DNA from: a phage
Direction: 5' to 3' (one strand)
DNA length: 64,000 nucleotides
Sequence record: PZ583742.1
The notes beneath the pieces are model-generated. The model searched no databases, was not told the DNA's origin, and saw nothing but the letters and a program-made list of their open reading frames with translations. Of this stretch, positions 3,844 to 62,230 are shown one piece after another. Positions within the stretch are counted from its first letter, which is position 1. Each line of letters begins with the position of its first letter. The translations under genes and the position numbers were made by a program.

Positions 3844-4803
3844 ATGATGTTAGTTATTGGTTCTCGTGCATTACATAACGCTGGTCTGATTGAAAGTCAG
3901 AAAATTGAAAACTCTGATTGGGACTTCATCGCTGACCAGGTCTCATGGAACCACTTTAAAGCACGTATGTTCGGTGCTCATGTTCCTGTGGATAACCCTG
4001 ATGTCCAAGCTTTTAAATGTATGTACAATGGCAAAGAAACCTATTTTGAAGCTTATATTGTCCGTGCCCTGACCAACGTACGAGAAATTACTGGCGAGCT
4101 TCAAGACGAAGATTTCACCTCAAGTTATCGTCTCCTGAAATATGCTGAAAATCATATTAAAAAAGATCGTCTTACAGGTTTTTACTGGGCGACTCCTGAT
4201 ATTTGTCTGGCAATTAAATTGTCTCATCGTTACCTGAAGAACAATCCATTCTTCTTGAAGACCATGAGTCATATTAATTACCTTCGCAATAAGGGTGTTG
4301 TTCTTAATGATGAACTACAAAAAATCATGCTGCAACGTCAGGCAGAAACACTGTCATACAGTCACCCTAAACTAGACGTGGGCAAGAAAACTTTCTTTAA
4401 TGATACAATCTATACCCTTGACCATGACTCCATCCACGAGGCTGTGGCGCTTGCTGATAAGCCTGCATATAAGTTCTATATGAAGGATGATTCAGAAGTC
4501 ATGACCTCGCGTGAAAAATTTGAAGCGCTCCCTGATGTTATTAAACTGGCAGGGGTTTATGAAGAAGCATGTGTGCTCGCTCTGGAGCGTTCGCAGGTTC
4601 CTAATGAGTTCAATATCTCTCCATCTGTGAGCTTCCATATTGCGCTGGAAAAAGTCTGCACCTCCATTACTTCTGGATGGTTCCGTGCCTTCGCATATGA
4701 AAATTACGGCAAAATTATAAGTATGTATAATGCTTTAGGTCATGACGATTATATTAAACGTTTTAAGGCTAACCAACATTTAATTCGTCCTTTCACAAAA
4801 TAA
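3844..4803 (+). CDS. hypothetical protein (319 aa), no T4 counterpart recognised
   Basis: Long ORF with RBS TGAGGAAAA before ATG. Confidence 0.55.
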   Translation: MMLVIGSRALHNAGLIESQKIENSDWDFIADQVSWNHFKARMFGAHVPVDNPDVQAFKCMYNGKETYFEAYIVRALTNVREITGELQDEDFTSSYRLLKYAENHIKKDRLTGFYWATPDICLAIKLSHRYLKNNPFFLKTMSHINYLRNKGVVLNDELQKIMLQRQAETLSYSHPKLDVGKKTFFNDTIYTLDHDSIHEAVALADKPAYKFYMKDDSEVMTSREKFEALPDVIKLAGVYEEACVLALERSQVPNEFNISPSVSFHIALEKVCTSITSGWFRAFAYENYGKIISMYNALGHDDYIKRFKANQHLIRPFTK

Positions 4804-4862
4804 GTGTGTACATCCAAATGAGGCTATGACATAATGGTCCCACAATCAATGAGGAAAATATC

Positions 4863-10285: not shown

Positions 10286-10744
10286 ATGACTACTATCGAT
10301 TCAAGTGTTTACATTCGCCGCAATAAACTTCGTCGCATTTTTGAAACGGAGTTCCTCAAAATTAATAATGCTATCAACAAGGCTTGTAAAGAAGCAGGCC
10401 TTGAGGCATTCTTCATTAAGTACAGTCCGCACCTGTTGGACCGTGCAATCCAACGTGAAATTGATGAACAATATGTTTTTGACTTGTTTGGAAAAATCAC
10501 ACCACATGTAAAAGAAATCGTTGAATTCCTGGAGATGAAACCGCTCCCGGAAGTTGAAGCACAAATTGACCCGAATGTGAACTATCGTCCACTTCGTCTG
10601 GAAATCACAGACAAGAACCTATGGTTAGGAATGACAGTTAACCCAGCTCTTCCTGGGAAGTCTCCGACCATGTGTTGTCGTATGGCGTTTGTTAACTCTA
10701 ATCGTCTGGAAGGAAAAATTAGCACAAAAGTGATTTATATCTAA
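10286..10744 (+). CDS. regB: RegB endoribonuclease
   Basis: YIRRNKLRR.FE.EF..HLLDRAIQREIDE.YVF..RP.RLEITD.NLWLG matches T4 RegB; RBS AAAAGGAGA. Confidence 0.85.
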   Translation: MTTIDSSVYIRRNKLRRIFETEFLKINNAINKACKEAGLEAFFIKYSPHLLDRAIQREIDEQYVFDLFGKITPHVKEIVEFLEMKPLPEVEAQIDPNVNYRPLRLEITDKNLWLGMTVNPALPGKSPTMCCRMAFVNSNRLEGKISTKVIYI

Positions 10745-10754
10745 TGGGGAATTC

Positions 10755-11297
10755 ATGAAAAAAGTAATCGCCACCTTACTATTGACAGTTAGTATGTCTG
10801 CCCATAGCGTAGAGCCTACTTTCAGTAATGAACAAATGGGGAACCTCCAATATGCTTATGCGTTTGGAGAACAGTTCCAGAAAAATGGTAAGTACAAAGA
10901 AAATCCGCACCAACATAATGGTTTGGGATATATCATGGCTGGTTTAGCCTGGCAGGAAAGTTCTGCTGGGATTAATACTGGATTAAATAAAGATAAGCAT
11001 CATGCATATGGTATATTCCAAAATTATCTTCCAACCGTGCGCGAACGCGTGAAACAGGTTGGGTGGACAATGACAGATAAAGAAATAATCAAGATGATAA
11101 GCAAGAGAGAGAACAGCGCACGCTGGGCTTATATTGAGCTTTCATACTGGTTGAATATTCATAAGGGGGATATAAGGAAAACACTATCATCATATAACGC
11201 AGGGTGGAATGTGAAAGCTGGTAATACGTATGCTTCACAGGTCCTAGAAAAAGCTAACTACTTAAAATCACGAGGCCTATTAAAAACGGTGGATTAA
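10755..11297 (+). CDS. secreted lytic transglycosylase-like protein (vs.1-like)
   Basis: Signal peptide MKKVIATLLLTVSMSAHS; SLT-like motifs AWQESS and YGIFQ, YNAG; position next to regB as T4 vs.1. Confidence 0.7.
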   Translation: MKKVIATLLLTVSMSAHSVEPTFSNEQMGNLQYAYAFGEQFQKNGKYKENPHQHNGLGYIMAGLAWQESSAGINTGLNKDKHHAYGIFQNYLPTVRERVKQVGWTMTDKEIIKMISKRENSARWAYIELSYWLNIHKGDIRKTLSSYNAGWNVKAGNTYASQVLEKANYLKSRGLLKTVD

Positions 11298-11299
11298 AA

Positions 11300-11659
11300 A
11301 TGGTAAGAGTTATCACTTTAGCCATAGGGTTAGTATTCAGCATGGGAGGAATAGCTTCAGTACAGAGCGATGACAACAACAGCATCATAGAATATGCAAC
11401 GAGGACGGCTAAAGATTATTGCGCAGCAAGCAATGTGGATTGTGTAATCCAGTTCAGTGCCAAGCTCACCGCAGCCTATAAAGATGGCCAAAATGATGTT
11501 GAACATACGCTTTTGAAAAAGAATGTATTATCCAACAAATATGAAAAGAAATTATTTGAAATGGATTGCATTCTATCAAGTGCAAAATATAAGGCGGCCT
11601 GCACCAGTATGGTTGACAGGTTAGTGGATTCATATAATAGAGGATTGAACTCTAAATGA
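11300..11659 (+). CDS. secreted hypothetical protein
   Basis: N-terminal signal-like hydrophobic segment; ORF abuts upstream stop. Confidence 0.4.
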   Translation: MVRVITLAIGLVFSMGGIASVQSDDNNSIIEYATRTAKDYCAASNVDCVIQFSAKLTAAYKDGQNDVEHTLLKKNVLSNKYEKKLFEMDCILSSAKYKAACTSMVDRLVDSYNRGLNSK

Positions 11660-12129
11660 TTACCCAGTATATTAAGGGCGATATCGTCGCCCTCTTTCTT
11701 AGTGGTAAAAACATTGCACATGGTTGCAATTGCTTCCATACAATGGGTTCAGGCGTAGCTGGTCAGTTGGCGAAGGCTTATCCAAGGATTTTAGAAATAG
11801 ACAAAACCTCAACCGACTATGGTTACAGAGGAAAACTCGGTGATATGTCTATTGTTTTTAAACATAAACCTACTGGGTTTGGTATGTGCTATAATTTGTA
11901 CACCCAATATGAACCGGGCCCTAATCTTGATTATGGCGCTTTAGTAAATTGTATGATAGAATTAAATCTACAGGCAGAAATCCTTTTGTTTAAACCGGTA
12001 ATTTATATTCCTCGTATTGGTTGTGGTATTGCTGGCGGCGATTGGGATAAGGTTTCTAAATTAATCGACATGTTTACTCCTGATATTGATTTAATAGTGG
12101 TGGATTATGAGCCAAGCCCGAATTCTTAA
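11656..12129 (+). CDS. macro-domain protein (ADP-ribose binding/processing)
   Basis: Macro-domain-like N-terminal pattern IKGDIV..HGCNCFHTMGSGVAGQL and G-rich loop CGIAGGDW. Confidence 0.6.
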   Translation: MITQYIKGDIVALFLSGKNIAHGCNCFHTMGSGVAGQLAKAYPRILEIDKTSTDYGYRGKLGDMSIVFKHKPTGFGMCYNLYTQYEPGPNLDYGALVNCMIELNLQAEILLFKPVIYIPRIGCGIAGGDWDKVSKLIDMFTPDIDLIVVDYEPSPNS

Positions 12130-12313
12130 AACGGCCAAATGTGAAAAATGTGAATGGCCAGTAATCGCAGCTTTATGCAATGATGAAATGAATTGCGAAT
12201 ATGATTACTGGTGGTACTGTTCTAATAAAGGATGTTCTAATCATAAGGGTGAAGGTTTTCATTCTGGTTATTGCGAACATCCTAAATTTGTGCGATATGG
12301 TGAACCGAAATGA
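12107..12313 (+). CDS. Cys-rich small protein
   Basis: Multiple CxxC-like pairs (CEKCEW, CSNKGC, CEH). Confidence 0.4.
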   Translation: MSQARILKTAKCEKCEWPVIAALCNDEMNCEYDYWWYCSNKGCSNHKGEGFHSGYCEHPKFVRYGEPK

Positions 12314-12495
12314 GTTTAAGCATTAGTCAGAAAAGTAGATTATTTGAGCTTATCCATGAGCTTTTGGATGAGCATACGGAAGCAAACGCCTTTTATGATG
12401 AATATGGTCCGATAGATGCCGAACATCAGGAAGAATTTGCTAATCGATTTGATGCGAAAGAAAACGAATTAATAGCTTATGTGAATACGCTTTAA
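12310..12495 (+). CDS. hypothetical protein
   Basis: ORF overlapping upstream stop. Confidence 0.4.
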   Translation: MSLSISQKSRLFELIHELLDEHTEANAFYDEYGPIDAEHQEEFANRFDAKENELIAYVNTL

Positions 12496-12504
12496 GAAGG
12501 TGAT

Positions 12505-13077
12505 ATGGCGAGTTTAATTTATCATTACGCAGCAATGAATGCAGGCAAAACAGCTTCATTGCTGACTGCAGCTTATTCCTATAAAGAGCGTGGAATGAGT
12601 GTGCTTTTGCTAAAACCTGTTATTGATAATCGGGACTCGGAATCTGAAATCAAATCACGTATTGGTATTAGCCAGGAAGCAAACCTGGTAACGGCCGACA
12701 TGAACCTGTTTGAATTCTATAAATGGGCCGAGTCTCAAAAGGATATCCATTGTGTCCTGGTCGATGAAGCTCAATTTTTGTTACCAGAGCAAATTGACCA
12801 GTTAGCTCAAGTGGTTGATAATTACAATATCCCCGTTATGTGTTACGGGTTAAGAACAGATTTTCGGGGTCAATTATTTCCCGGTTCAGCCAGACTTCTG
12901 GCTATTTCGGATAAACTGGTTGAATTAAAGGGCGTCTGTCATTGCGGCCGGAAAGCAACCATGACCGCGCGAGTAATCGACGGTGCTGCTGTAAAGGACG
13001 GCGAGCAAGTGTTAGTCGGTGGGAATGAATCGTACGTATCTTTATGCAGGAAACATTGGCTCGAATTAACAAGCTGA
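12505..13077 (+). CDS. tk: thymidine kinase
   Basis: P-loop NAGKTASLL, VDEAQF, C-terminal zinc motif CHCGRKA..C; typical TK1-family layout. Confidence 0.9.
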   Translation: MASLIYHYAAMNAGKTASLLTAAYSYKERGMSVLLLKPVIDNRDSESEIKSRIGISQEANLVTADMNLFEFYKWAESQKDIHCVLVDEAQFLLPEQIDQLAQVVDNYNIPVMCYGLRTDFRGQLFPGSARLLAISDKLVELKGVCHCGRKATMTARVIDGAAVKDGEQVLVGGNESYVSLCRKHWLELTS

Positions 13078-13084
13078 GGTTCGC

Positions 13085-13360
13085 ATGATATACAAGGTTT
13101 GGACGTATATCTCTATTTTTGTTATTGCTGGGATTGCATTTATCCCCACACAAACAGATAGCGAGAGATATGAAAGGGAAATTGAAATAGTAGCAAGTAC
13201 GTACCATTCTGTTAATAAAGAATGCCCGAATAAAAATGGAATAAATTTACAAAAATCACATTATATGCTGACTGTTACTAGTCCAGTGCAAAGAATATGG
13301 GTTGATAGACATTTTTCTGATTTATTTGCAATGTATTGTTTCAAATTTAAAAGATTATAA
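13085..13360 (+). CDS. small membrane protein
   Basis: N-terminal TM segment ISIFVIAGIAFIP. Confidence 0.4.
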   Translation: MIYKVWTYISIFVIAGIAFIPTQTDSERYEREIEIVASTYHSVNKECPNKNGINLQKSHYMLTVTSPVQRIWVDRHFSDLFAMYCFKFKRL

Positions 13361-50627: not shown

Positions 50628-51656
50628 ATGTCATATATTGATAAAGAATTTGCAGTCAGAGCTTTATCGTATCAACCACGTTATAGAGAAGTCACCGGGA
50701 GCACATTTAAAGCAAACTGTCGTTGCAAGGTTTGTGGGGACTCCCAGAAAGATTCACACAAGGCTCGATTCTGGGCGTATACTAATCCGACTGATGGCGC
50801 GGTTTACGTGAAATGTTTTAACTGTGACTACTCCACGCATATAAGCAAATACATAAAAGAGTTTGAGCCGGATTTACACCGGGAATATATGGTTGAGAAG
50901 TATAAGGAGAATGCATTTGGGCGACAACGCACTGAAGTTGCAGAAGCTCCGAAAGAACCAGAAAAAACTCCGGTTATTGAGCAGCTTGCTTTTTGTGAAA
51001 GACTCGATACTTTACCAGAAGCACATCCGATAATTAAGTATGTAAAAAGTCGGTGTATTCCGAGCAATGTTTGGAACCGGTTATGGTTTACAAACAAATG
51101 GCCTGCATTAGTTAACTCCGTTAATCCTGGGACGTATAAGAATGAAACGAATGAACCACGCTTGGTTATTCCTATCTTCAACGGCAAAAAAGAAATCGAA
51201 TCTTTCCAAGGACGAGCTCTTCGCAAAGATGCACCACAAAAATATATCACAATCAAAGCTCACCCAGAAGCTTCCAAAGTCTATGGCGTAGACAAGATTG
51301 ATGAGCGTAAACGCGTATGGGTAATGGAAGGTCCAATTGATAGTTTGTTTATCCCTAACAGCATTGCGATAACCGGTGGAACATTAGCATTGGAAGCTGT
51401 TCCTTACCCAGAAACCAGAGTATGGGTGATGGATTCAGAAGCAAGACATCCTGATACGATTAAACGTATGAAGAAATTAGTCGATGCAGGAGAAGCTGTT
51501 ATGTTCTGGGACAACGCACCGTGGCATACGAAAGATATAAATGAAATGATTAAATCGGAAGGAGCAACGCCTGAGCAAATTGAAGCCTATATGAATGATA
51601 ATATTGCACAAGGTTTAATGGCAAAACTTCGATTATCCAAATATGCAAAAATATGA
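50628..51656 (+). CDS. 61: DNA primase gp61
   Basis: N-terminal zinc ribbon CRCKVCGDS..x..CFNCDYS; TOPRIM-like VWVMEGPIDSLF; size and neighbourhood as T4 gp61. Confidence 0.9.
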   Translation: MSYIDKEFAVRALSYQPRYREVTGSTFKANCRCKVCGDSQKDSHKARFWAYTNPTDGAVYVKCFNCDYSTHISKYIKEFEPDLHREYMVEKYKENAFGRQRTEVAEAPKEPEKTPVIEQLAFCERLDTLPEAHPIIKYVKSRCIPSNVWNRLWFTNKWPALVNSVNPGTYKNETNEPRLVIPIFNGKKEIESFQGRALRKDAPQKYITIKAHPEASKVYGVDKIDERKRVWVMEGPIDSLFIPNSIAITGGTLALEAVPYPETRVWVMDSEARHPDTIKRMKKLVDAGEAVMFWDNAPWHTKDINEMIKSEGATPEQIEAYMNDNIAQGLMAKLRLSKYAKI

Positions 51657-52420
51657 ATTATCTAAAATTATATAATAAATTAATAGACAAAGGCCTCGCA
51701 AGGGGCCTAAACAAAAAGAATATCCCATTTTATACGGAGTCCCATCATATACTACCAAGGTGTTTGGGTGGACCTGACACCGAAGATAATTTGGTATTGT
51801 TATCAGCAAGAGAACATTTTATTGCACATTTGTTACTTTTTAAAATTTATCGACTTTCTAAATTAATGTTTGCTATACACCGGATGTGCGGTGACAAATT
51901 TGATAGCGCAAAATATGAATGGATGCGAAAAGAACATAGTAAAGCCGTTAGTGAACATATGTCAAACTTATGGAGTCAATCCGAGTTTAAAGACAAAATG
52001 TTAATTGCTTTACACAAGCGACATAACGACCACCCTGTGTCTGATAAAACCAAAAGTAAAATAGCTAACTCATTAAAATTGTATTATCAAAATAATCCAG
52101 TTACTGATGAACAACGGCAAAAGAATCGCGATGCACAAATGAGAAGATTTAAAGAAAATCCGCAAACCGAAGAAACGAAAAAGTTGCGGCGAGAAGCATG
52201 CCGAAAGGCAACTGGAACACCGGTTTGTAGATGCGATGAATTTGGTAATATACTTGAAAAGTATAATTCGGGAGCTGAGGCAAAGGAATTATTACAATTG
52301 GCGGGCAATACTCAAAATATATACACAGCTTGTAAAAGAAATAAAAAGACAGGCCGAATGTATAGGTCAAACGGCCATTTTTGGAAGTATCAAGACGAGG
52401 AAGGGATTCCGGTAAAGTAA
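51653..52420 (+). CDS. HNH homing endonuclease (Mob-like)
   Basis: HNH motif ESHHILPRCLGGPDTEDNLVLLSAREHFIAH; start overlaps gene 61 stop (ATGA); basic repeat-containing C-terminal half. Confidence 0.75.
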   Translation: MNYLKLYNKLIDKGLARGLNKKNIPFYTESHHILPRCLGGPDTEDNLVLLSAREHFIAHLLLFKIYRLSKLMFAIHRMCGDKFDSAKYEWMRKEHSKAVSEHMSNLWSQSEFKDKMLIALHKRHNDHPVSDKTKSKIANSLKLYYQNNPVTDEQRQKNRDAQMRRFKENPQTEETKKLRREACRKATGTPVCRCDEFGNILEKYNSGAEAKELLQLAGNTQNIYTACKRNKKTGRMYRSNGHFWKYQDEEGIPVK

Positions 52421-54765: not shown

Positions 54766-54911
54766 CACAAGAAGAAGCCGAACGCCAGGCAAAAGAAGCA
54801 CTGGATTTGCTTTTGAAAATTGGCAGTAAAATGATGGAAGAAAATGAAAAGTACATCAAGGAAAATAAAGTTCCTGATGGTCCATTAGTTGGTAAGAGGA
54901 AATCATTATGA
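54762..54911 (+). CDS. small hypothetical protein (49 aa)
   Basis: ATG overlaps upstream stop; below ORF-track size cutoff. Confidence 0.3.
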
Positions 54912-55390
54912 AAGTATACGAATTAGAATTCTATGTCCGTGATTCGGCTGGGCAAACACGACCTTACTATGCAACAGCCTGTCTTATCTTTGCATATAAT
55001 GGCATGGATTCGGTTACTGAGTTGGAAACAAAATTAATGAACCTGACGATGCCAGAAAACGTTATGCTGAAGGTATTTCATAGAAAAAACGTTAATGTGG
55101 CTGAAGGGTGTCCATTTACTGTTTCCGAAGCTCTGCATATCAAAGGCTATCGCCACCCGGACCTTTATGGCGAAGATACCATTTTCTATAAAGATAGAGA
55201 TAAAATGGCCACTGAACGTCTTCAAGGTCGCACATATCTGATTTCCACTACCGACGACCTTGCTGAAGTTGAACGTCAGATTTGGAAGCACTTTGATATC
55301 GGCTTGCGCTTTACTTTAACAGAAGAAGCTATTCAAGATACTAAAATGCGTGCTCGTATGTATGGTTACGGTCCTATCGGTGGCTACTAA
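54908..55390 (+). CDS. hypothetical protein
   Basis: 160 aa ORF with RBS AGAGGAAA. Confidence 0.45.
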
Positions 55391-55855: not shown

Positions 55856-56416
55856 ATGAACATCATCAAATCTGATACCGAACCCAACCAGTTAAAATTT
55901 AGTGAAATGGAGATAGCTTCATTATTTGAGTGTCGCACATCAAAGGTTGATAAGACCTTGCATTCAAACGTTAACTCAATCATCAAGTCAAGGTTATCTG
56001 TACCTGATACAGTCTTGTATCGTGGGGTTACCCAGCAAGAGATTGATTTGTTAGATGAAGCAAAAGAATCAATGCAACCTTTTGAATTTGGAAGGATAAC
56101 CTCCTTTACAGAAGACTATGGTATTGCCAGGGATTTTGCTGCAATGGAATATGTGTCAAGGACTATCATCAGATTGAATCATACAAAAGCTTTTTGTTAC
56201 CATGATGCGATGCGCAAAATCGCGCTTGACGTTCCACTGGAATTCTTCAATACTGCTTCTGGTTCCGAACAGGCAGCAACGTTAAGACGTGAAGAATACA
56301 TGGACATGATTGATTCTGAGCTTGAATGGTTTGTTCCAGTTGACCAGAAATTCGTGGTGGTTGATGCTGGATTTGTTGGTGATTATTATGTTCTTGACTG
56401 TGTACAAGAGCAATAA
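55856..56416 (+). CDS. ADP-ribosyltransferase-like protein (ModB-like by position)
   Basis: R-S-E pattern: LYRGV, SFTEDYGIARDFA, ELEWFVP; paralogue of next gene; sits between 56/soc and dda where T4 has modA/modB. Confidence 0.5.
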   Translation: MNIIKSDTEPNQLKFSEMEIASLFECRTSKVDKTLHSNVNSIIKSRLSVPDTVLYRGVTQQEIDLLDEAKESMQPFEFGRITSFTEDYGIARDFAAMEYVSRTIIRLNHTKAFCYHDAMRKIALDVPLEFFNTASGSEQAATLRREEYMDMIDSELEWFVPVDQKFVVVDAGFVGDYYVLDCVQEQ

Positions 56417-56460
56417 GACACGTTAAGATGTTCCTATCAACTACTGATGAGGATAATAAA

Positions 56461-57075
56461 ATGCTGTACACAAGTCACCAATTAGCAGAGTACATCAATG
56501 CAGTTAAATGTGAATATTTTCGTGAAAATACCCAGATTGAAATTGATGAAATTTACTCTGAGTTGGAACAGAGTACACTCTGGCAGTGTATGGAAAATAA
56601 GCCAGACACTATCCAGGAAACTTTGAACAAAATTATTCGTAAGAATTTGACTTCTGCTGTGCCTGGTAAGTTATATCGCGGGATTTCTAAGAAAACTTTG
56701 GCATATCTTGAAACCGTAGGATGTGTTGGTGCTACGATTGAGTTTGACCGTGTAATGAGTTTCTCCAAAGATTTCAGTGTTGCGCGTAACTTTGCTTCCT
56801 TTAGCTTCTATGGAACCAAAAATATTTTCTGTATTAATGATGCACCATTCGCATTTGATTATCAGGAAGCGATTTTTAAAATGATTTGTGCGGCACCTCC
56901 TGAAGAGTTCAACGGACTATATCCTGAAATAACTCGTTCTTCAAACTTGCAATTAGTAAATGATGAAGATGAGATGATGTTCCCTGCGGGAACTACGCTA
57001 CGCGTGGACTCTATTGAGAGCATTTATAGATGGGAAGACTATAAATTATGGAATCTTTCTGTTCTTTCTTACTGA
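56461..57075 (+). CDS. ADP-ribosyltransferase-like protein (ModA-like by position)
   Basis: LYRGIS, SFSKDFSVARNFA, EDEMMFPAG; paralogue of 55856..56416. Confidence 0.5.
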   Translation: MLYTSHQLAEYINAVKCEYFRENTQIEIDEIYSELEQSTLWQCMENKPDTIQETLNKIIRKNLTSAVPGKLYRGISKKTLAYLETVGCVGATIEFDRVMSFSKDFSVARNFASFSFYGTKNIFCINDAPFAFDYQEAIFKMICAAPPEEFNGLYPEITRSSNLQLVNDEDEMMFPAGTTLRVDSIESIYRWEDYKLWNLSVLSY

Positions 57076-57231: not shown

Positions 57232-57978
57232 ATGACTTTATCAAAAACCAAAACGCTGAAAGTTAAACGTCGTCTGGAACACACTCAAGCTTCCGCTAAA
57301 CGTCGCGGTAAAGACTTTAACCTGGATTTTAATTATCTGGTTAACATTCTTGACCAAAAAGTTTGTGCTTATTCTGGTGAAGCATTTAACAACTCTATTG
57401 AAGGTGAGAAGTTATCATTAGAGCGTTTTAACAATGATATTGGTTATATCAAGGGTAATGTTATTCCTGTTAAAAAGAAATACAATACCATGCGTTCTGA
57501 TTGGTCCCTGGATGAGCTTAAACAACGTCGCGATGATGTTGCTGTAAAAATTGCTCGCCCGTCCGTCAAGAAGATTGAAAAGTTAAATCTGACAGCAGAG
57601 AAATGGGAACAGATTAAAAAGTCGTATACCCATATTAAGAACATCCAACACAAACGTGATAATCGCGTTAAGCATTATGCTCAAATGAGTAAATCAGAGC
57701 AGTCCAAAGAAAACCAATTAAAAATGATTGCTCTGAAGGCTCGCATTGATGGTTCCCGTGTTGCAGAAGGTCATGAGCTTACTAAATTGAATGTCCTGCT
57801 CAAAGGTAATGACTGGAAGGTTACCAAGAAATTAACTAATGCTGAAACGCTTTTTGATTGCTATGATAAAATCATTCAAGGTCTTGAGCGTTTTGAGAAG
57901 ATTGGTTTTATTGGTAAATTAAAACTGAAACGTGGTCTACCTTTGAACGCGTCAATTTTTAAACTGATTAGAGGTTAA
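57232..57978 (+). CDS. Srd-like protein (assigned by synteny and size only)
   Basis: 248 aa ORF between mod-like genes and dda; downstream of TGTACA-N16-TATAAT promoter. Confidence 0.35.
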   Translation: MTLSKTKTLKVKRRLEHTQASAKRRGKDFNLDFNYLVNILDQKVCAYSGEAFNNSIEGEKLSLERFNNDIGYIKGNVIPVKKKYNTMRSDWSLDELKQRRDDVAVKIARPSVKKIEKLNLTAEKWEQIKKSYTHIKNIQHKRDNRVKHYAQMSKSEQSKENQLKMIALKARIDGSRVAEGHELTKLNVLLKGNDWKVTKKLTNAETLFDCYDKIIQGLERFEKIGFIGKLKLKRGLPLNASIFKLIRG

Positions 57979-57982
57979 TGTG

Positions 57983-58279
57983 ATGTACTACGCATATGTG
58001 CTGGTTCACAAAGATAAAGATGGTTTTGAACGCCCATTGGAATACAATGGAAAGGTTACCTTATACACCACAAAAGCGGGTGCAGAATATGAACTTGCCA
58101 ACTATTCATATACCACAAACCGATATTTAAGTATGGGGCGTATTGAAACCATTTACATTCCTAGGAAGTGGTGGTTTGATAAGCGTGAAACAAAAACAGT
58201 TTTTCCTACTGAAGAACACGCACGAGAATTGAAACAGGTTTTATATACTTTATATGTTAAGCGAGTAAAATTGGCATGA
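57983..58279 (+). CDS. hypothetical protein
   Basis: ATG 57983 (GTG 57980 also possible). Confidence 0.4.
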   Translation: MYYAYVLVHKDKDGFERPLEYNGKVTLYTTKAGAEYELANYSYTTNRYLSMGRIETIYIPRKWWFDKRETKTVFPTEEHARELKQVLYTLYVKRVKLA

Positions 58280-59604
58280 TTAAATTTGAAGACTTGAACA
58301 CAGGACAAAAAGAAGCTTTTGATTATATCACCGAAGCTATTCAACGACGTTCAGGGGAATGTATTACTCTGAATGGTCCAGCTGGTACAGGTAAAACTAC
58401 TCTGACAAAATTTGTCATTGACCATCTGGTGCGTAATGGAGTTATGGGAATTGTGCTTGCCGCACCAACTCACCAGGCAAAAAAAGTTCTATCTAAATTG
58501 TCTGGTCAAACGGCGAATACAATCCATAGTATTCTGAAGATTAACCCGACCACATATGAAGACCAAAACGTTTTTGAACAGCGCGAAATGCCTGACATGT
58601 CAAAATGTAATGTTCTGGTTTGTGATGAAGCAAGTATGTATGACGGGTCTCTGTTTAAGATTATTCTTAACTCTGTTCCTGAATGGTGTACTATTCTTGG
58701 GATTGGTGATATGCACCAGCTGCAGCCAGTTGACCCAGGAAGCACACAACAAAAGATAAGCCCATTCTTTACGCATCCTAAGTTCAAACAGATTCATCTG
58801 ACTGAGGTTATGCGAAGCAATGCTCCTATCATTGAAGTAGCGACAGAAATTCGTAACGGGGGTTGGTTCCGCGACTGTATGTATGATGGTCATGGTGTAC
58901 AGGGTTTCACCTCACAAACCGCTTTAAAGGATTTCATGATAAACTATTTTGGTATTGTAAAAGATGCTGATATGTTGATGGAAAACAGGATGTATGCGTA
59001 CACGAATAAATCAGTTGAAAAACTGAACAATATTATTCGTCGCAAGCTCTATGAAACGGATAAAGCATTTTTACCGTATGAAGTCCTAGTTATGCAAGAG
59101 CCACACATGAAAGAGCTGGAATTTGAAGGCAAGAAATTCAGCGAAACCATTTTTAATAATGGTCAGTTGGTTCGCATCAAGGATTGCAAATACACTTCCA
59201 CAATTCTCCGTTGTAAAGGTGAATCACACCAGTTAGTGATTAATTACTGGGACCTGGAAGTTGAGTCAATTGATGAAGATGAAGAATATCAGGTTGACCG
59301 CATCAAAGTTTTACCTGAAGACCAGCAACCAAAATTCCAGGCATATCTGGCTAAAGTTGCTGACACATACAAACAGATGAAAGCCGCTGGTAAACGTCCA
59401 GAGTGGAAAGACTTCTGGAAAGCCCGCCGGACCTTCTTGAAAGTTCGTGCTCTTCCGGTTAGTACAATCCACAAGGCCCAGGGCGTTTCAGTAGACAAGG
59501 CATTCATCTATACTCCATGCATCCATATGGCCGAAGCTTCATTAGCGAGCCAGTTGGCTTATGTAGGAATCACACGAGCGAGGTACGACGCATATTATGT
59601 ATAA
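58276..59604 (+). CDS. dda: DNA helicase Dda (SF1B)
   Basis: GQK.AF; INGPAGTGKTTLTKF; ILAAPTH.AKK.LSKLSG..A.TIHSILKINP; TEV.RSNAPII; STIHKAQG.SVD.AFIYTPCIH matches T4 Dda. Confidence 0.95.
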   Translation: MIKFEDLNTGQKEAFDYITEAIQRRSGECITLNGPAGTGKTTLTKFVIDHLVRNGVMGIVLAAPTHQAKKVLSKLSGQTANTIHSILKINPTTYEDQNVFEQREMPDMSKCNVLVCDEASMYDGSLFKIILNSVPEWCTILGIGDMHQLQPVDPGSTQQKISPFFTHPKFKQIHLTEVMRSNAPIIEVATEIRNGGWFRDCMYDGHGVQGFTSQTALKDFMINYFGIVKDADMLMENRMYAYTNKSVEKLNNIIRRKLYETDKAFLPYEVLVMQEPHMKELEFEGKKFSETIFNNGQLVRIKDCKYTSTILRCKGESHQLVINYWDLEVESIDEDEEYQVDRIKVLPEDQQPKFQAYLAKVADTYKQMKAAGKRPEWKDFWKARRTFLKVRALPVSTIHKAQGVSVDKAFIYTPCIHMAEASLASQLAYVGITRARYDAYYV

Positions 59605-59836
59605 AGTACATAAAGAAGATTTAGATACTCTTATCTATGGTATTCAGGACGCGGTTGAATTTTTCGAAGATAATCCGACTATCGTCCAACAGGGTAATTA
59701 CGTTTTACTGGAACTGAGTCTTATTCAGAAACGTATGGCCGCGATTGAATATTTTAACAATGAAGAGCCAGGAATTTTTATCTCCGACTATGTTGCTGGT
59801 GAAATTCAGAAATTAAAAGAGATGTGCGATGATTGA
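59597..59836 (+). CDS. hypothetical protein (dda.1 position)
   Basis: ORF overlapping dda stop. Confidence 0.4.
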   Translation: MYKVHKEDLDTLIYGIQDAVEFFEDNPTIVQQGNYVLLELSLIQKRMAAIEYFNNEEPGIFISDYVAGEIQKLKEMCDD

Positions 59837-60548
59837 TGCTATTATTGACTTTGAAACTCTGGGAAACGGCTCGAAGGGAGCCGTTATTGACTTGGCCCTG
59901 ATTACATTCGAATCTGACCCTGCTATTGTGGAATCATTCGAAACCCTGGTTAATCGCGGCAAACGTATTAAGTTCAGTCTCGAATACCAAAAAGGAAAAC
60001 GTCTGTTTGACACAACAACCATGGGTTGGTGGAAAAAACAATCAGCAGAAGCACGTGTTAACCTGGCCCCTTCTGCACATGATGTTGATACTCTGACCGG
60101 TATCCAACAGGCGATTGACTATCTGAATGGCAATGGAATTAACAAATACGAAAGCCTTATGTGGTGCCGTGGAATGTCTTTTGACTTCCCGTTGTTTGTT
60201 GACCTTATCCGTGACCTGCAGCGCAATGAGGGTATCCCTGAGCGTGAATTGAATACCTATGACCTGGAGCCGGTTGTATTCTGGAACCAGCGAGATATCA
60301 GGACGGCAATCGAAGCCTTGTCACTCGTCCGTAAGATGTGTGAAACCCCATTACCGAAAGGGACTTTAGATGGATTTGTGGCGCACGATTCAGTGCATGA
60401 CTGCGCGAAAGATATTCTTATGCTGAAGTATGCCCAGCGCTATGCTCTTGGTTTAGATGAAGTTCCTTCCGAAGAAGATGCAGACCCGTTATCTTTACCA
60501 AAAAAAAACGATAAAAGTAGTGTACAAGGCCAATGGAAAGAGACATAA
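59829..60548 (+). CDS. dexA: exonuclease A (DnaQ-like 3'-5' exonuclease)
   Basis: MIDAIIDFETLG exo I motif; position after dda as in T4. Confidence 0.85.
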   Translation: MIDAIIDFETLGNGSKGAVIDLALITFESDPAIVESFETLVNRGKRIKFSLEYQKGKRLFDTTTMGWWKKQSAEARVNLAPSAHDVDTLTGIQQAIDYLNGNGINKYESLMWCRGMSFDFPLFVDLIRDLQRNEGIPERELNTYDLEPVVFWNQRDIRTAIEALSLVRKMCETPLPKGTLDGFVAHDSVHDCAKDILMLKYAQRYALGLDEVPSEEDADPLSLPKKNDKSSVQGQWKET

Positions 60549-60580: not shown

Positions 60581-60838
60581 ATGATTACTTCTTTTGAAAT
60601 TGGCCAACAATATGAAATGTCCGCTCTTCAAGCTGCTGAAGCAGGTCTGACCGAAGCGTTTGAATGTGCATTTACAAATATTCGTGGTAAAATCTTTACT
60701 GTCAATAAAATTGCGGTATATGATAAAGAAACAGACATGAACAAAGGCATCTACTTGAACGTGTCAAACGCAAAAGGTCGTCGTGAAATTATGGTTGTAC
60801 AACCTAATCAACTGGCGATGTTCAATAAGGTTGCATAA
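60581..60838 (+). CDS. hypothetical protein
   Basis: Preceded by promoter/RBS-hairpin module embedded in dexA 3' end. Confidence 0.45.
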   Translation: MITSFEIGQQYEMSALQAAEAGLTEAFECAFTNIRGKIFTVNKIAVYDKETDMNKGIYLNVSNAKGRREIMVVQPNQLAMFNKVA

Positions 60839-61590
60839 TGAAACCAGAATTTATTGACTTTGATGTTGTAAGTATGTATGTTCGCCCAATTAAACCATTA
60901 AAACTTGAGAAACAAAATATGACTATTGAAATTAACAAAACTTATCAACTGATTGAACCTATTATTCAAAACGCAGCTATGGTTTCTGGGTATAATACTC
61001 TGACTGATGCTTTAGGTGAAGGTGAATTTATTGTTGAAACTTTTGTAAAAAGTAACTGGTTTGATAAAGCATATATTCTACATGCACGTCGCCTTGATAC
61101 AAATAAAGTAGAAAAAATTATGGTTTATGAAGCTGAGATTGAACTCTTCAAAGAAGTTGAAGAAACTCCTATCAAAGTTGACAAAACCTATCAACTTGTT
61201 GGATATGGTGATTTTGATAATACTAATGCATTGAATGCCGGTTGGCGGGTGCTGAAAGGTATTTTTGGATTTGCTCCATTTACCGTTAAAACAGTTAAGT
61301 ACCACAATCACCAAAGCATCTTTGAATTTACTGCGGTCAATGAATCAGGTGACAATCTTGAAGCTATCCTTTATCCACGTGAATCTGTACTGCTGGAAGA
61401 AGTTAGCGAACTGGGTGACCCTATTGACTTGCTGTGTAAACCAGTTCAAATCAAACGCCCATTTAACAGTTCCATTTGTGGTTGGGTAACAGACCAGTGG
61501 ATTGAAGAGAGTGTTGAACTCCTGAACGTTGTCCATGCTGGTGAATTTACTGTTGTACCACGTTCCATGGTTGTTGAAATTTTTAATTAA
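60838..61590 (+). CDS. hypothetical protein with internal repeats; paralogue of 61670..62230
   Basis: Internal repeats INKTYQLIEP / VDKTYQLVGYGDF; C-terminus VTDQWIEESVELLNVVHAGEFTVVPRSMVVE similar to next gene. Confidence 0.5.
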   Translation: MKPEFIDFDVVSMYVRPIKPLKLEKQNMTIEINKTYQLIEPIIQNAAMVSGYNTLTDALGEGEFIVETFVKSNWFDKAYILHARRLDTNKVEKIMVYEAEIELFKEVEETPIKVDKTYQLVGYGDFDNTNALNAGWRVLKGIFGFAPFTVKTVKYHNHQSIFEFTAVNESGDNLEAILYPRESVLLEEVSELGDPIDLLCKPVQIKRPFNSSICGWVTDQWIEESVELLNVVHAGEFTVVPRSMVVEIFN

Positions 61591-61669: not shown

Positions 61670-62230
61670 ATGAAAGTTGAAGCTGGCGAAATCGTTCGCG
61701 TATCCAAAAAATCTCGTTCAAGAGCCGCTGGACGTTTTGTTGAGGTTGTCAGTATTCGTGCTGATATTTTTGTTGACCATCCTGATAATGAAGTAAAGGT
61801 GCGTATCATTCCCAAAAATGGTCAGACTGAAACTCAATTCGCTTATGTTCGTGCTAAATTCCTGGAATCAACTGCTATTACTGCCGCCAACCTCCCTGTG
61901 GTTGAAGAAGTTGAATCCCATGATGGATATGTGTGCGAAAGCAATGATATCCGTGGCGTAATTGCTCAAGACGTTGAAACCATTGACCAGTCTCATGTTG
62001 GGGTTGATTTTAAATGGAAATTGGGCAAAGGTGTCTTTTTTGTTTCACCTAAACCGTTTGAATATGTTGACGAACCTTTTGGTACTTATGAAACCACTAG
62101 CATGTCTGGTTACATCACAGACCAGTGGGTTGAAGAAGGCGTTAAGCTCTATAACATCGTGTTCCTTGGAACCTTTAAGGTGGTTCCTGAAAGCTTTATC
62201 GTTGAGTATGCTGATATTCATCGTGCCTAA
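61670..62230 (+). CDS. hypothetical protein, paralogue of 60838..61590
   Basis: C-terminus ITDQWVEEGVKLYNIVFLGTFKVVPESFIVE; downstream of TGTACA-N17-TATAAT promoter. Confidence 0.5.
   Translation: MKVEAGEIVRVSKKSRSRAAGRFVEVVSIRADIFVDHPDNEVKVRIIPKNGQTETQFAYVRAKFLESTAITAANLPVVEEVESHDGYVCESNDIRGVIAQDVETIDQSHVGVDFKWKLGKGVFFVSPKPFEYVDEPFGTYETTSMSGYITDQWVEEGVKLYNIVFLGTFKVVPESFIVEYADIHRA

Follow-up and report, generated by a model that had tools for sequence, protein, structure and literature searches.

What does the small gene that lies between vs and the thymidine kinase gene (tk) do in a T4-type coliphage? The stretch of DNA that we analyzed (the window, 64,000 nucleotides) is from a Gaprivervirus that is 96-98% identical at the DNA level to vB_EcoM_RZ and SP18. 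The original prediction, which was made from the sequence alone, was that this gene encodes a macrodomain protein and that, together with two ADP-ribosyltransferase-like genes elsewhere in the window, it might let the phage both write and erase ADP-ribosylation, or else counter a host defense that ADP-ribosylates.

The open reading frame (ORF) extends from ATG to stop at 11656-12129 on the plus strand (stop included), and its 157-residue product (17.3 kDa, pI 5.5) begins with MITQYIKGDIVALFLSGKNIAHGCNCFHTMGSGVAGQL. By our reading of the sequence, a Shine-Dalgarno-like GAGGA (11640-11644, plus strand) is found 11 nucleotides upstream of the start codon, and AGGAT or AGGGT is kept before the start in SP18, RZ, and T4. 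The start codon and the stop codon of vs share the sequence ATGA (11656-11659), and the last 23 nucleotides of the ORF are shared with the next one. The surrounding early array is tightly packed and on the plus strand throughout, as is typical for T4. Between 9000 and 13500, we found 15 sigma-70-like sites, while 14.2 were expected from shuffled sequences, so the promoter scan was uninformative.

The product of this gene is a macrodomain protein. It matches the Macro family in Pfam (PF01661) with 28.4 bits (the cut-off is 22 bits; E = 1.8e-6), with residues 22-136 aligning to positions 2-117 of the 118 positions in the model, and it matches PHROG 335 with E = 3.7e-67; chance does not explain such matches. 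The product contains both motifs that the original prediction had quoted (residues 6-11 and 22-38). The AlphaFold (AF2) model (pLDDT 95, pTM 0.90) has the three-layer alpha/beta/alpha fold with two Gly-rich loops for binding ADP-ribose (MGSGVAG at residues 30-36 and IGCGIAGG at residues 121-128). Using Foldseek, we found 164 matches in the PDB at E ≤ 1e-3. The best 50 of these 164 are nearly all macrodomains; the exceptions are designed serine hydrolases (OSH55). Among the matches listed, the best solved structures are TARG1, BT1257, Poa1p, DarG from Taq and Mtb, and SCO6735 (TM scores of 0.70-0.84). Across relatives of the protein, G33, G122, and G124 never vary, and G31, G127, and G128 almost never do. 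A missing macro fold or a degenerate Gly-rich loop would have spoken against the macrodomain call; instead, the HMM match and the predicted fold both uphold it.

The gene is the ortholog of T4 tk.4, which has been renamed adfM. The two proteins are similar over their full length: the product from the window is 58% identical to T4 Tk.4 (NP_049723) across 153 aligned residues without gaps (64 substitutions; E = 3e-70). Their neighbors have diverged to a comparable degree (71% identity for Tk and 45% for Vs). The order of the array, regB-vs.1-vs-tk.4-tk.3-tk.2-tk, is identical in the window, T4, and SP18. Directly upstream of tk.4 is vs, which encodes the valyl-tRNA synthetase modifier (11300-11659, plus strand; phrog_1256, E = 1.4e-32). 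Downstream, also on the plus strand, are a tk.3-like zinc-binding ORF (12107-12313; PF23895, E = 1.4e-29), a tk.2-like ORF with DUF7438 (12310-12495; PF24219, E = 1.9e-15), both of which are supported by the annotations of SP18 and T4, and tk itself (12505-13077; PF00265, E = 5.7e-58). So the gene is only approximately "next to tk," as originally described: tk begins 376 nucleotides downstream, with two ORFs in between.

T4 Tk.4 is also known as AdfM, for anti-DarT factor Macrodomain. At 155 residues, it is slightly shorter than the 157-residue protein in the window, with which it shares HGCNC, NLYTQ, and PRIG.GI..G.W. The two differ in the phosphate loop (GAGIGKGN in T4, GCGIAGGD in the window) and in the C-terminal tail (EPLL in T4, EPSPNS in the window). 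When T4 was screened with transposons on a host with DarTG2, tk.4 was the sole significant hit (bioRxiv 10.1101/2025.11.20.689424). A clean knock-out of tk.4 made T4 sensitive to DarTG2, and the same 2025 preprint renamed the gene (bioRxiv 10.1101/2025.11.20.689424). This phenotype was measured for the T4 allele only, in minimal medium at 30 C, and the screen covered a panel of known defense systems (bioRxiv 10.1101/2025.11.20.689424). The anti-DarTG2 phenotype is thus reported for T4 alone, in a preprint, and the genetics of the T4 ortholog agree with the part of the original prediction that has the gene countering an ADP-ribosylating host defense (bioRxiv 10.1101/2025.11.20.689424). Because this role was published for T4 in 2025 and hundreds of T4-type genomes already carry an annotation of the gene, finding it here carries little weight as a discovery: tk.4 is an already-known, ordinary, and widely conserved macrodomain gene of the T4 family. 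AdfN is not in the window; it is T4 gene 30.3, which belongs to another part of the genome.

The other part of the original prediction was that the phage both writes and erases ADP-ribosylation, in which case Tk.4 would reverse the modification of host proteins by Alt, ModA, or ModB, or their RNAylation. The window does contain the two ADP-ribosyltransferase-like genes: a modA-like gene at 55856-56416 and a modB-like gene at 56428-57075 (both on the plus strand; matches to phrog_832, "RNA polymerase ADP-ribosylase," with E = 2.8e-28 and E = 2.4e-42, respectively). The genes that flank this pair are mrh and srd, which is also the arrangement in T4. Also, the mod genes and the tk.4 array both belong to the early program of T4-type phages. 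But the mod-like genes are 44 kb from tk.4, with no operon link, and the co-occurrence of genes about 44 kb apart is simply the conserved gene order of T4. Furthermore, the ADP-ribosyltransferases of T4 (the Alt and Mod enzymes) are specific for arginine, while the characterized ALC1-like macrodomains act on other linkages. The known substrates of the ALC1-like macrodomains are Glu/Asp esters and linkages to thymine N3 or uracil N3 (PMC9411070, PMC13036486), and macrodomains that are specific for arginine, MavL among them, have been placed in a family of their own (PMC10951314). Finally, the phenotype in the T4 screen was specific to DarTG2 (bioRxiv 10.1101/2025.11.20.689424). Given the mismatch in specificity, and with no evidence that ties the mod-like genes to tk.4, we set aside the write-and-erase proposal and give almost no weight to the idea that Tk.4 acts on the phage's own modifications.

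To understand how Tk.4 might work, we aligned its active site to those of characterized macrodomains and of 258 relatives. Substrate-binding loop 1 (H22-G23-C24-N25-C26-F27...M30-G31-S32-G33-V34-A35-G36; 11719-11763, plus strand) contains H22, G23, and N25, which correspond to H24, V25, and N27 of SCO6735 from Streptomyces coelicolor. N25 also corresponds to N23 of PhiKZ AdfM and to N22 of Taq DarG. These three residues of loop 1 are conserved in nearly all of the relatives (251, 255, and 257 of 258, respectively), and their equivalents have been mutated in earlier studies (PMC9411070, PMC13309987). The next motif is N80-L-Y82-T83-Q84 (11893-11907, plus strand), which we placed using hhalign against Mtb DarG, Taq DarG, and TARG1, and using a profile alignment to BT1257 (which has NMIGQ). 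Where DarG and TARG1 have their catalytic Lys (K80 and K84, respectively), Tk.4 has Gln84, which corresponds to the essential Gln85 of SCO6735. This Gln is present in 258/258 relatives. The phosphate-binding loop (P119-R-I-G122-C-G124-I-A126-G-G128-D-W130; 12010-12045, plus strand) includes G122 and G124, which are G126 and G128 in SCO6735. In this loop, the sequence in the window (PRIGCGIAGGDW) is nearly identical to that of SCO6735 (PRIGCGLAGGTW).

As judged from these alignments, the Tk.4 clade is not DarG-like at its active site, with Gln replacing the catalytic Lys. We considered whether the loss of the Lys implies an inactive macrodomain that only binds its ligand, but we dropped this idea because SCO6735, with the same Gln, is highly active. 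Wild-type SCO6735 is faster than DarG and TARG1 at clearing dT-ADPr from DNA, and it protects E. coli against DarT (PMC9411070). In SCO6735, the Q85A and Q85E mutants are inactive, N27S is nearly dead, and G128E has reduced activity (PMC9411070). The best structural matches of Tk.4 belong to the ALC1-like class, whose members have been proposed to have thymidine de-ADP-ribosylation in common (PMC9411070).

We propose that Tk.4/AdfM from the window is an early counter-defense macrodomain that erases DarT2's ADP-ribose from phage DNA by SCO6735-like catalysis, and we estimate the probability of this at roughly 75%. During infection, DarT2 from the host would attach ADP-ribose to thymidine (at N3) within TNTC motifs of the phage's single-stranded DNA, which would block the replication of the phage's DNA. 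The two Gly-rich loops of Tk.4 would hold the ADP-ribose moiety, and Tk.4 would cut the bond between thymine and ribose, so that replicable DNA is restored. The chemistry would most likely be that of SCO6735, a Gln-type ALC1-like enzyme, instead of that of DarG or TARG1. Specifically, Gln84, locked by Asn25, would position the distal ribose and the transition state, and a water bound by the backbone of residue 23 would start the reaction, with no catalytic lysine being used. We infer that the Tk.4 clade as a whole removes ADP-ribose enzymatically; in the searchable literature, we found no biochemical assay of any protein from this clade.

Alternatively, Tk.4 might protect the phage mainly without catalysis, by binding and inhibiting DarT2 or by shielding the modified DNA, as a mimic of an antitoxin. 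The dead Q85A mutant of SCO6735 still inhibits DarT by direct interaction, and in vitro it does so more than DarG K80A or TARG1 K84A (PMC9411070), which suggests that a non-catalytic contribution is possible. Also, AdfA and AdfB, which are other known anti-DarT factors, bind the toxin (PMC11825919). However, the residues for SCO6735-type hydrolysis are invariant or nearly invariant in the 258 relatives, including distant ones from bacteria that have no DarT2 nearby, which argues for selection on catalysis. Tk.4 also has no counterpart of the C-terminal domain with which DarG binds DarT (157 residues for Tk.4, as compared to HMM lengths of 329-338). We consider it unlikely that protection is mainly non-catalytic.

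Some databases suggest a third activity, on a small molecule. The GenBank label for T4 tk.4 is "phosphatase; contains A1pp phosphatase motif" and PHROG 335 is labeled "phosphatase," so historically Tk.4 would be an ADP-ribose-1''-phosphate phosphatase or an O-acetyl-ADP-ribose deacetylase of the Poa1p/YmdB type. Yeast Poa1p (PDB 6LFR), which is an ADP-ribose-1''-phosphate phosphatase, has the same fold as Tk.4 and is among its top fold matches. The N-terminal motifs are similar as well (IAHGCNC..T.G.G in Tk.4 and ILIHSCNC..S.G.G in Poa1p), including the equivalent of His23 of Poa1p. But the central regions are not alignable by sequence, and the residues that were mutated in the deposited structures of Poa1p (His23, Ser30, and Phe152; 6lfu is F152A) correspond to H22, Thr29, and Ala126 in Tk.4, so that Phe152, which we take to contact the distal ribose, is replaced. 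The phosphate-binding loop is instead of the SCO6735 type (GCGIAGG). Furthermore, we know of no source of Appr1p during T4 infection, and the sole recorded phenotype of tk.4 is sensitivity to DarTG2. A phosphatase or deacetylase of this type is very unlikely, and the "phosphatase" label, which reflects the resemblance to Poa1p, is misleading.

A variation on our main proposal is that the main substrate of Tk.4 is another ADP-ribosylated nucleic acid, such as N3-uridine on phage RNA that a putative host transferase has modified, with DarT2 being one toxin among several. TARG1, DarG, and especially SCO6735 also reverse the ADP-ribosylation of uracil on single-stranded RNA (PMC13036486). An eraser works no matter which toxin wrote the mark; this argument was made for AdfN (PMC11825919). 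The Tk.4 clade is also very large and widespread: relatives of the protein are encoded in 2,722 phage records, with close homologs in many groups of phages, and the clade comprises 1,229 clusters at 50% identity (E ≤ 1e-30). On the other hand, the cited literature does not describe any bacterial defense with an ADP-ribosyltransferase that targets uracil in RNA, and the T4 screen was limited to known systems. We view a main substrate other than DarT2-modified DNA as quite unlikely.

The 5' end of tk.4 also contains a conserved stem-loop followed by a U-rich run, within the first 40 coding nucleotides. This terminator-like match is at 11675-11693 on the plus strand, inside codons K7-L13, and it is kept in T4, SP18, and RZ. 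The wobble positions of the stem are fixed in 20/20 sequences, while those of the loop and the flanks vary, and compensatory variants are present in the stem. Judging from these patterns, the stem-loop is under constraint at synonymous sites, and it has no part in the protein's function. In phage T2, an Hfq/sRNA contact with the tk.4 mRNA was reported by RIL-seq. When we paired the sRNA ArcZ with the 5' region of tk.4 using RNAduplex, which ignores intramolecular structure, 164/200 and 99/200 dinucleotide shuffles gave equal or better energies. A scan of 11300-12300 with Rfam gave only a sub-threshold chance match (PhrS, 16 bits, with a gathering score of 37).

SCO6735 (PDB 5E3B) and BT1257 (PDB 2FG1/2AFC) are among the closest known macrodomains to Tk.4. 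Both are Gln-type ALC1-like proteins that share the active-site His, Asn, and two Gly residues with Tk.4, and BT1257 is the best match by sequence in the PDB (E = 7e-19 with the profile of the Tk.4 family). Tk.4 has Gln84 with Asn25 in loop 1, as well as H22, G122, and G124 with a GLAGG-type phosphate loop, as expected for this subclass. Yet the identities are just 25-28%, and Tk.4 is acidic while SCO6735 and BT1257 have pIs of 8.7-9.6 (computed from partial sequences). Tk.4 also lacks K34 and K89, which are the lysines through which SCO6735 binds DNA and acts processively. Lys89 is in the "mobile loop," which is said to typify the subclass and is about 5 residues longer there than in DarG or TARG1; Tk.4 has the short form. 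Similarly, the spacing from the Gln to a conserved Tyr is 8 residues in Tk.4 and TARG1 but 13-14 residues in SCO6735 and BT1257, and BT1257 has a 6-residue insertion relative to the Tk.4 profile. Because its loop is short, we liken Tk.4 to SCO6735 in its working but do not place it in that subclass. Nevertheless, T4-type AdfM is best modeled on SCO6735, with Q84 and N25 as the sites for catalytic-dead controls.

Human TARG1/OARD1 (PDB 4J5S), which removes dT-ADPr from DNA, is the top Foldseek match (TM up to 0.84 when normalized by target length). TARG1 and Tk.4 both have the loop-1 His, and in both the loop that follows the catalytic position is short. However, the Lys84/Asp125 dyad of TARG1 is Gln84/Ala126 in Tk.4 (A126 aligns to D125 of TARG1 as well as to F152 of Poa1p), and TARG1 has Ser at the position of N25.

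The macrodomain of the antitoxin DarG2 (PDB 5M31/5M3E/5M3I) also has the same fold as Tk.4 (TM 0.75-0.78), and so we considered whether Tk.4 is a captured DarG antitoxin. We rejected this idea: Tk.4 scores just 27-29 bits against HMMs for DarG, it has no catalytic Lys and no C-terminal domain, and the bacterial relatives that we checked are not near DarT2. Specifically, Tk.4 scores 26.7 bits against NCBIfam NF048014, whose cut-off is 250 bits, and covers only positions 15-149 of the DarG models. In the window, tk.4 is adjacent to vs and tk.3 and not to darT, and using tblastn with a single query, we found a DarT2 homolog within 4 kb of 0/80 bacterial relatives. Also, Asp49 and Tyr82 are invariant in the Tk.4 clade and specific to it, while SCO6735, BT1257, and DarG have Tyr and Ile/Pro at these positions. 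The short loop, these two residues, and the lack of linkage to DarT in cellular relatives suggest a separate branch and not a capture of DarG. In a fuller form of this proposal, which we offer tentatively and which is doubtful as a whole, the clade would be a phage-adapted Gln-type branch whose substrates may exceed DarT2-modified thymidine (to include N3-uridine in RNA or the marks of other host transferases) and whose expression may depend on the stem-loop and U-tract, possibly the site of the Hfq/sRNA contact in T2.

Phage PhiKZ encodes another protein that is called AdfM, gp104, which removes DarT2-made ADP-ribose from DNA in vitro (PMC13309987) and is an independent precedent for the activity that we propose for Tk.4. 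DarG2, gp104, and T4-type Tk.4 have DarT2 as their common target system, and DarG2 and gp104 share the conserved Asn and the Thr before the catalytic position with Tk.4. Also, gp104 is as acidic as Tk.4. But like DarG, gp104 has the catalytic Lys (FPTK; K80 in DarG, K78 in gp104) where Tk.4 has Gln84. Furthermore, gp104 scores 133-138 bits on HMMs for DarG (132.9 bits for PADLOC's PDLC02990, as compared to 29.2 bits for Tk.4) and is similar to Mtb DarG (E = 9e-25), while Tk.4 and gp104 match each other with only 24 bits. Based on these comparisons, the two types of AdfM are from different lineages, with the PhiKZ type being Lys-type and derived from DarG2. Because the T4 type has Gln instead of Lys at the catalytic position, the label "DarG-like" is imprecise for it. 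Phages have acquired macrodomains against DarT2 on at least two occasions, and the two sources, represented by the T4 type and the PhiKZ type, are different branches of the family. This repeated recruitment speaks for DNA ADP-ribosylation as a selective pressure that acts on phages strongly and recurrently.

The ORF at 11656-12129 (+ strand; 157 aa; N-terminus MITQYIKGDIVALFLSGKNIAHGCNCFHTMGSGVAGQL) lies among genes that are all on the same strand. Its start codon overlaps the stop codon of the upstream gene (ATGA), a GAGGA ribosome-binding site is found 11 nt 5' of the start, and its last 23 nt are shared with the next ORF. Both of the N-terminal motifs that led to the original prediction of a macro-domain protein are within MITQYIKGDIVALFLSGKNIAHGCNCFHTMGSGVAGQL, and the protein matches Pfam's Macro domain (28.4 bits, E = 1.8e-6; the curated threshold is 22 bits) as well as PHROG 335 (E = 3.7e-67). 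The region 10700-13100 is 98.4% identical at the nucleotide level to Escherichia phage vB_EcoM_RZ (RZ) and shares 96-98% identity with Yersinia phage P8 and Shigella phage SP18, members of Gaprivervirus (Straboviridae, Tevenvirinae). In SP18, the corresponding gene is annotated as tk.4, within the array regB, vs.1, vs, tk.4, tk.3, (one extra ORF), tk.2, tk, and the gene order of T4 matches. With T4 Tk.4, the window protein shares 58% identity (153 residues, no gaps, E = 3e-70); for the flanking Tk and Vs, the identity to T4 is 71% and 45%, respectively. By sequence and gene order, the window gene is the tk.4 orthologue.

Relatives are encoded by 2,722 of 50,697 phage records, and a family profile search found 1,229 clusters (50% identity, E ≤ 1e-30) among 1.84 billion representatives. 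The gene is already a known and widely annotated phage gene, whose role was lately published for T4. Vibrio phages Pylo, Cilsick, GRLPWR, and Dax (127 kb) have a Tk.4-like macrodomain gene (37-40% identical) that adjoins a gene annotated as ribose-phosphate pyrophosphokinase, a possible sign that another phage group links this gene to ADP-ribose or NAD+ salvage modules. Within the array, SP18 and several relatives have an extra 207-bp ORF between tk.3 and tk.2 (4617-4823 of the SP18 locus) that is missing from RZ and from the window (junction 12313/12310); this explains the two-piece megablast matches (~2610 bp versus 2401 bp). The vs.1-like ORF at 10755-11297 has a signal-peptide-like N-terminus and a weak, below-cutoff match to the SLT lytic transglycosylase domain (PF01464, E = 0.009); its counterparts in some relatives are labelled "SLT domain-containing protein."

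An AlphaFold2 model of the protein, built from 89 family sequences, has a mean pLDDT of 95 and a pTM of 0.90. In the PDB, Foldseek matched this model to human TARG1, Bacteroides BT1257, yeast Poa1p, Streptomyces SCO6735, and the DarG macrodomains of Thermus aquaticus and Mycobacterium tuberculosis (all with probability 1.00 and TM-scores of 0.70-0.84). Scores were lower for coronavirus Mac1-type domains, and among predicted viral structures the best matches were phage macrodomain proteins, one of them "tk.4" of Acinetobacter phage 133. Given the predicted macro fold and the conservation of both glycine-rich binding loops in the family, the macrodomain call stands. The database label "phosphatase" on T4 tk.4 comes from a Poa1p-type reading; despite the structural match to Poa1p, we disfavour this activity because the equivalent of Poa1p's Phe152 is alanine in the window protein.

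A role of tk.4 has been published for T4. DarTG2 is a host defence in which the DarT2 toxin ADP-ribosylates thymidine in DNA and the macrodomain DarG is the antitoxin. T4 lacking adfA and adfN is still resistant to DarTG2, and a further factor was predicted (PMC11825919). When a T4 transposon library was grown on DarTG2-expressing E. coli, tk.4 was the single significant hit, and a clean knock-out was DarTG2-sensitive; the gene was renamed adfM (preprint, November 2025, bioRxiv 10.1101/2025.11.20.689424). From its likeness to the M. tuberculosis DarG structure, the same authors inferred that T4 AdfM removes ADP-ribose from DNA. The anti-DarTG2 phenotype, shown only in T4, agrees with the original suggestion that the protein counters an ADP-ribosylating host defence.

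The original prediction also pointed to two ADP-ribosyltransferase-like genes elsewhere in the window, and proposed that the phage might both write and erase this modification. The two genes are indeed present: a modA-like gene (55856-56416) and a modB-like gene (56428-57075), both matching phrog_832. As in T4, they are preceded by mrh (54908-55390) and followed by srd (57232-57978), dda (58276-59604), and dexA (59829-60548). Their presence reflects conserved T4 gene order and is no evidence of a functional pairing with tk.4. Also, T4's Alt, ModA, and ModB are arginine-specific ADP-ribosyltransferases, whereas the characterised macrodomains of the tk.4 class cleave other linkages, so it is unlikely that tk.4 erases the phage's own marks. 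Overall, the original finding was correct and its interpretation was essentially right.

Two other features of the window are worth describing. Directly 3' of primase gene 61 (50628-51656), the ORF at 51653-52420 encodes a homing-endonuclease-like protein (255 aa; phrog_655, E = 6e-45), and probably inserted into the replication gene cluster as a mobile element. Of the adjoining ORFs at 60838-61590 and 61670-62230, which both end in a MotB-type C-terminus, the second is a full homologue of MotB (PF17613, 193.6 bits) and the first has only its last ~40 residues in common with it, as if part of the gene had been duplicated or a domain were shared.

At the nucleotide level, tk.4 has two unusual stretches. 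Across the 2.4 kb of 10700-13100, the window and RZ differ at 39 nucleotides, 25 of which are in tk.4, and 24 of those lie within 141 nt (11701-11841, residues 16-62); identity is 100% in tk.3, tk.2, and tk. This patch causes nine amino-acid changes (residues 16-59), leaves the catalytic residues unchanged, and points to a short recombination tract or to an exchange of alleles within a counter-defence gene. Within the first 40 nt of the coding sequence, there is a GC-rich stem-loop at codons K7-L13 (11675-11693), with a U-rich run after it that reaches about 11703. T4, SP18, RZ, and many IMG/VR relatives share the stem-loop. In a set of 20 unique sequences that code for this peptide, the stem's four-fold degenerate codons do not vary (GGC, GTC, and GCC in 20/20), while the loop codon and the one following the stem are free to change; at other invariant Gly/Ala/Val positions of tk.4, 3-4 synonymous codons are in use. 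In one lineage, two changes compensate each other (AAG to AAA plus CTN to TTG), and at the corresponding site distant homologues carry palindromes of their own (GGGAGAT...ATCTCCC; GGGATC...GATCCC). Where a lineage has Lys, Glu, or Gln as residue 12, the hairpin is absent and the wobble positions are free. By a formal count, 74% of cells are paired, versus 30-67% in slid controls, and none of 500 shuffles reached the covariation score. The element resembles a terminator, an attenuator, or an Hfq-binding module. The tk.4 mRNA of T2 is reported to be an Hfq-dependent RIL-seq partner of ArcZ and other sRNAs, with protein level unchanged (2026 preprint, bioRxiv 10.64898/2026.06.19.733364); a crude duplex test gave no signal for pairing of ArcZ with the 5' region of tk.4.

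To compare active sites, we aligned the Tk.4 family profile to the DarGs of M. tuberculosis and T. aquaticus, TARG1, and BT1257. All four alignments place N80-L-Y-T83-Q84 of the window protein opposite N-F-P-T-K (DarG), Y-L-I-T-K84 (TARG1), or N-M-I-G-Q (BT1257), so the catalytic lysine of DarG and TARG1 is replaced by glutamine. This glutamine is kept in 258/258 aligned family members and in 77 of the best 80 of 202 bacterial loci. Opposite Asp125, the second catalytic residue of TARG1, the window protein has Ala126. We set aside the idea that the substitution makes the domain inactive, as SCO6735, with Gln85 at the same position, is active: it takes thymidine-linked ADP-ribose off DNA more quickly than either DarG or TARG1, can rescue E. 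coli from DarT, and does not cleave guanine-linked ADP-ribose (PMC9411070). Q85A and Q85E are fully inactive, N27S is nearly so, and G128E is impaired; in the proposed mechanism, the backbone of Val25 holds a water and Gln85 positions the distal ribose (PMC9411070). Because catalytically dead Q85A still inhibits DarT (PMC9411070), it is possible that Tk.4 acts mainly by inhibiting DarT2 without catalysis, but the strict conservation of the catalytic residues speaks against this.

We prefer a catalytic role, and we give roughly three-in-four odds that the tk.4 protein counters DarTG2 by hydrolysing DNA-linked ADP-ribose with glutamine and water. The protein would be expressed early, within the vs-tk array. 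In a DarTG2 host, DarT2 would ADP-ribosylate N3 of thymidine in single-stranded phage DNA; the macrodomain would bind the ADP-ribose and hydrolyse the base-ribose bond, which would restore replication. The substrate range may be wider, as SCO6735, TARG1, and DarG also reverse N3-uridine ADP-ribose on RNA (PMC13036486).

PhiKZ gp104 was independently named AdfM (2026, Cell Reports; PMC13309987). In vitro, gp104 removed DarT2-made ADP-ribose from an oligonucleotide, N23A had reduced activity, and a figure legend gives N23 and K78 as putative active-site residues (PMC13309987). It matches M. tuberculosis DarG (E = 9e-25) and has the FPTK motif, and its scores on the DarG models of PADLOC and NCBIfam are 133-138 bits. 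The window protein and T4 Tk.4 score only 27-36 bits on these models, and the window protein matches gp104 with only 24 bits. By similarity, then, gp104 is a close relative of DarG2, and the two Tk.4 proteins are not. The 202 bacterial loci (from one genome per species) reach at best 41-43% identity, and the best are from diverse phyla (Ruegeria, Desulfobacter, Hyphomicrobiaceae, Verrucomicrobia, and Planctomycetota); there were no enterobacteria among the best 80. Within 4 kb of those 80, tblastn with a single query (P. aeruginosa DarT2) found nothing better than E = 0.7. Within the limits of that query, the cellular relatives are stand-alone genes rather than antitoxins. The T4-type and PhiKZ-type "AdfM" were therefore recruited independently, from different branches of the ALC1-like class.

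While the fold, orthology, and active-site equivalence of the window protein come from our own analysis, catalysis by Tk.4-clade proteins is inferred; the active-site comparison of this clade is the point that we add. The active-site residues of SCO6735 have equivalents in H22, G23, N25, Q84, G122, and G124 of the window protein, and the phosphate loops are almost identical (PRIGCGIAGGDW versus PRIGCGLAGGTW in SCO6735). SCO6735 and BT1257 have a longer "mobile loop" and lysines (K34 and K89) that the window protein lacks. Unlike them, it is mildly acidic (pI 5.5), but so is PhiKZ gp104 (pI 5.05), which is a proven DNA hydrolase. Asp49 and Tyr82 are invariant and specific to the Tk.4 clade, and set it apart from SCO6735 and BT1257.
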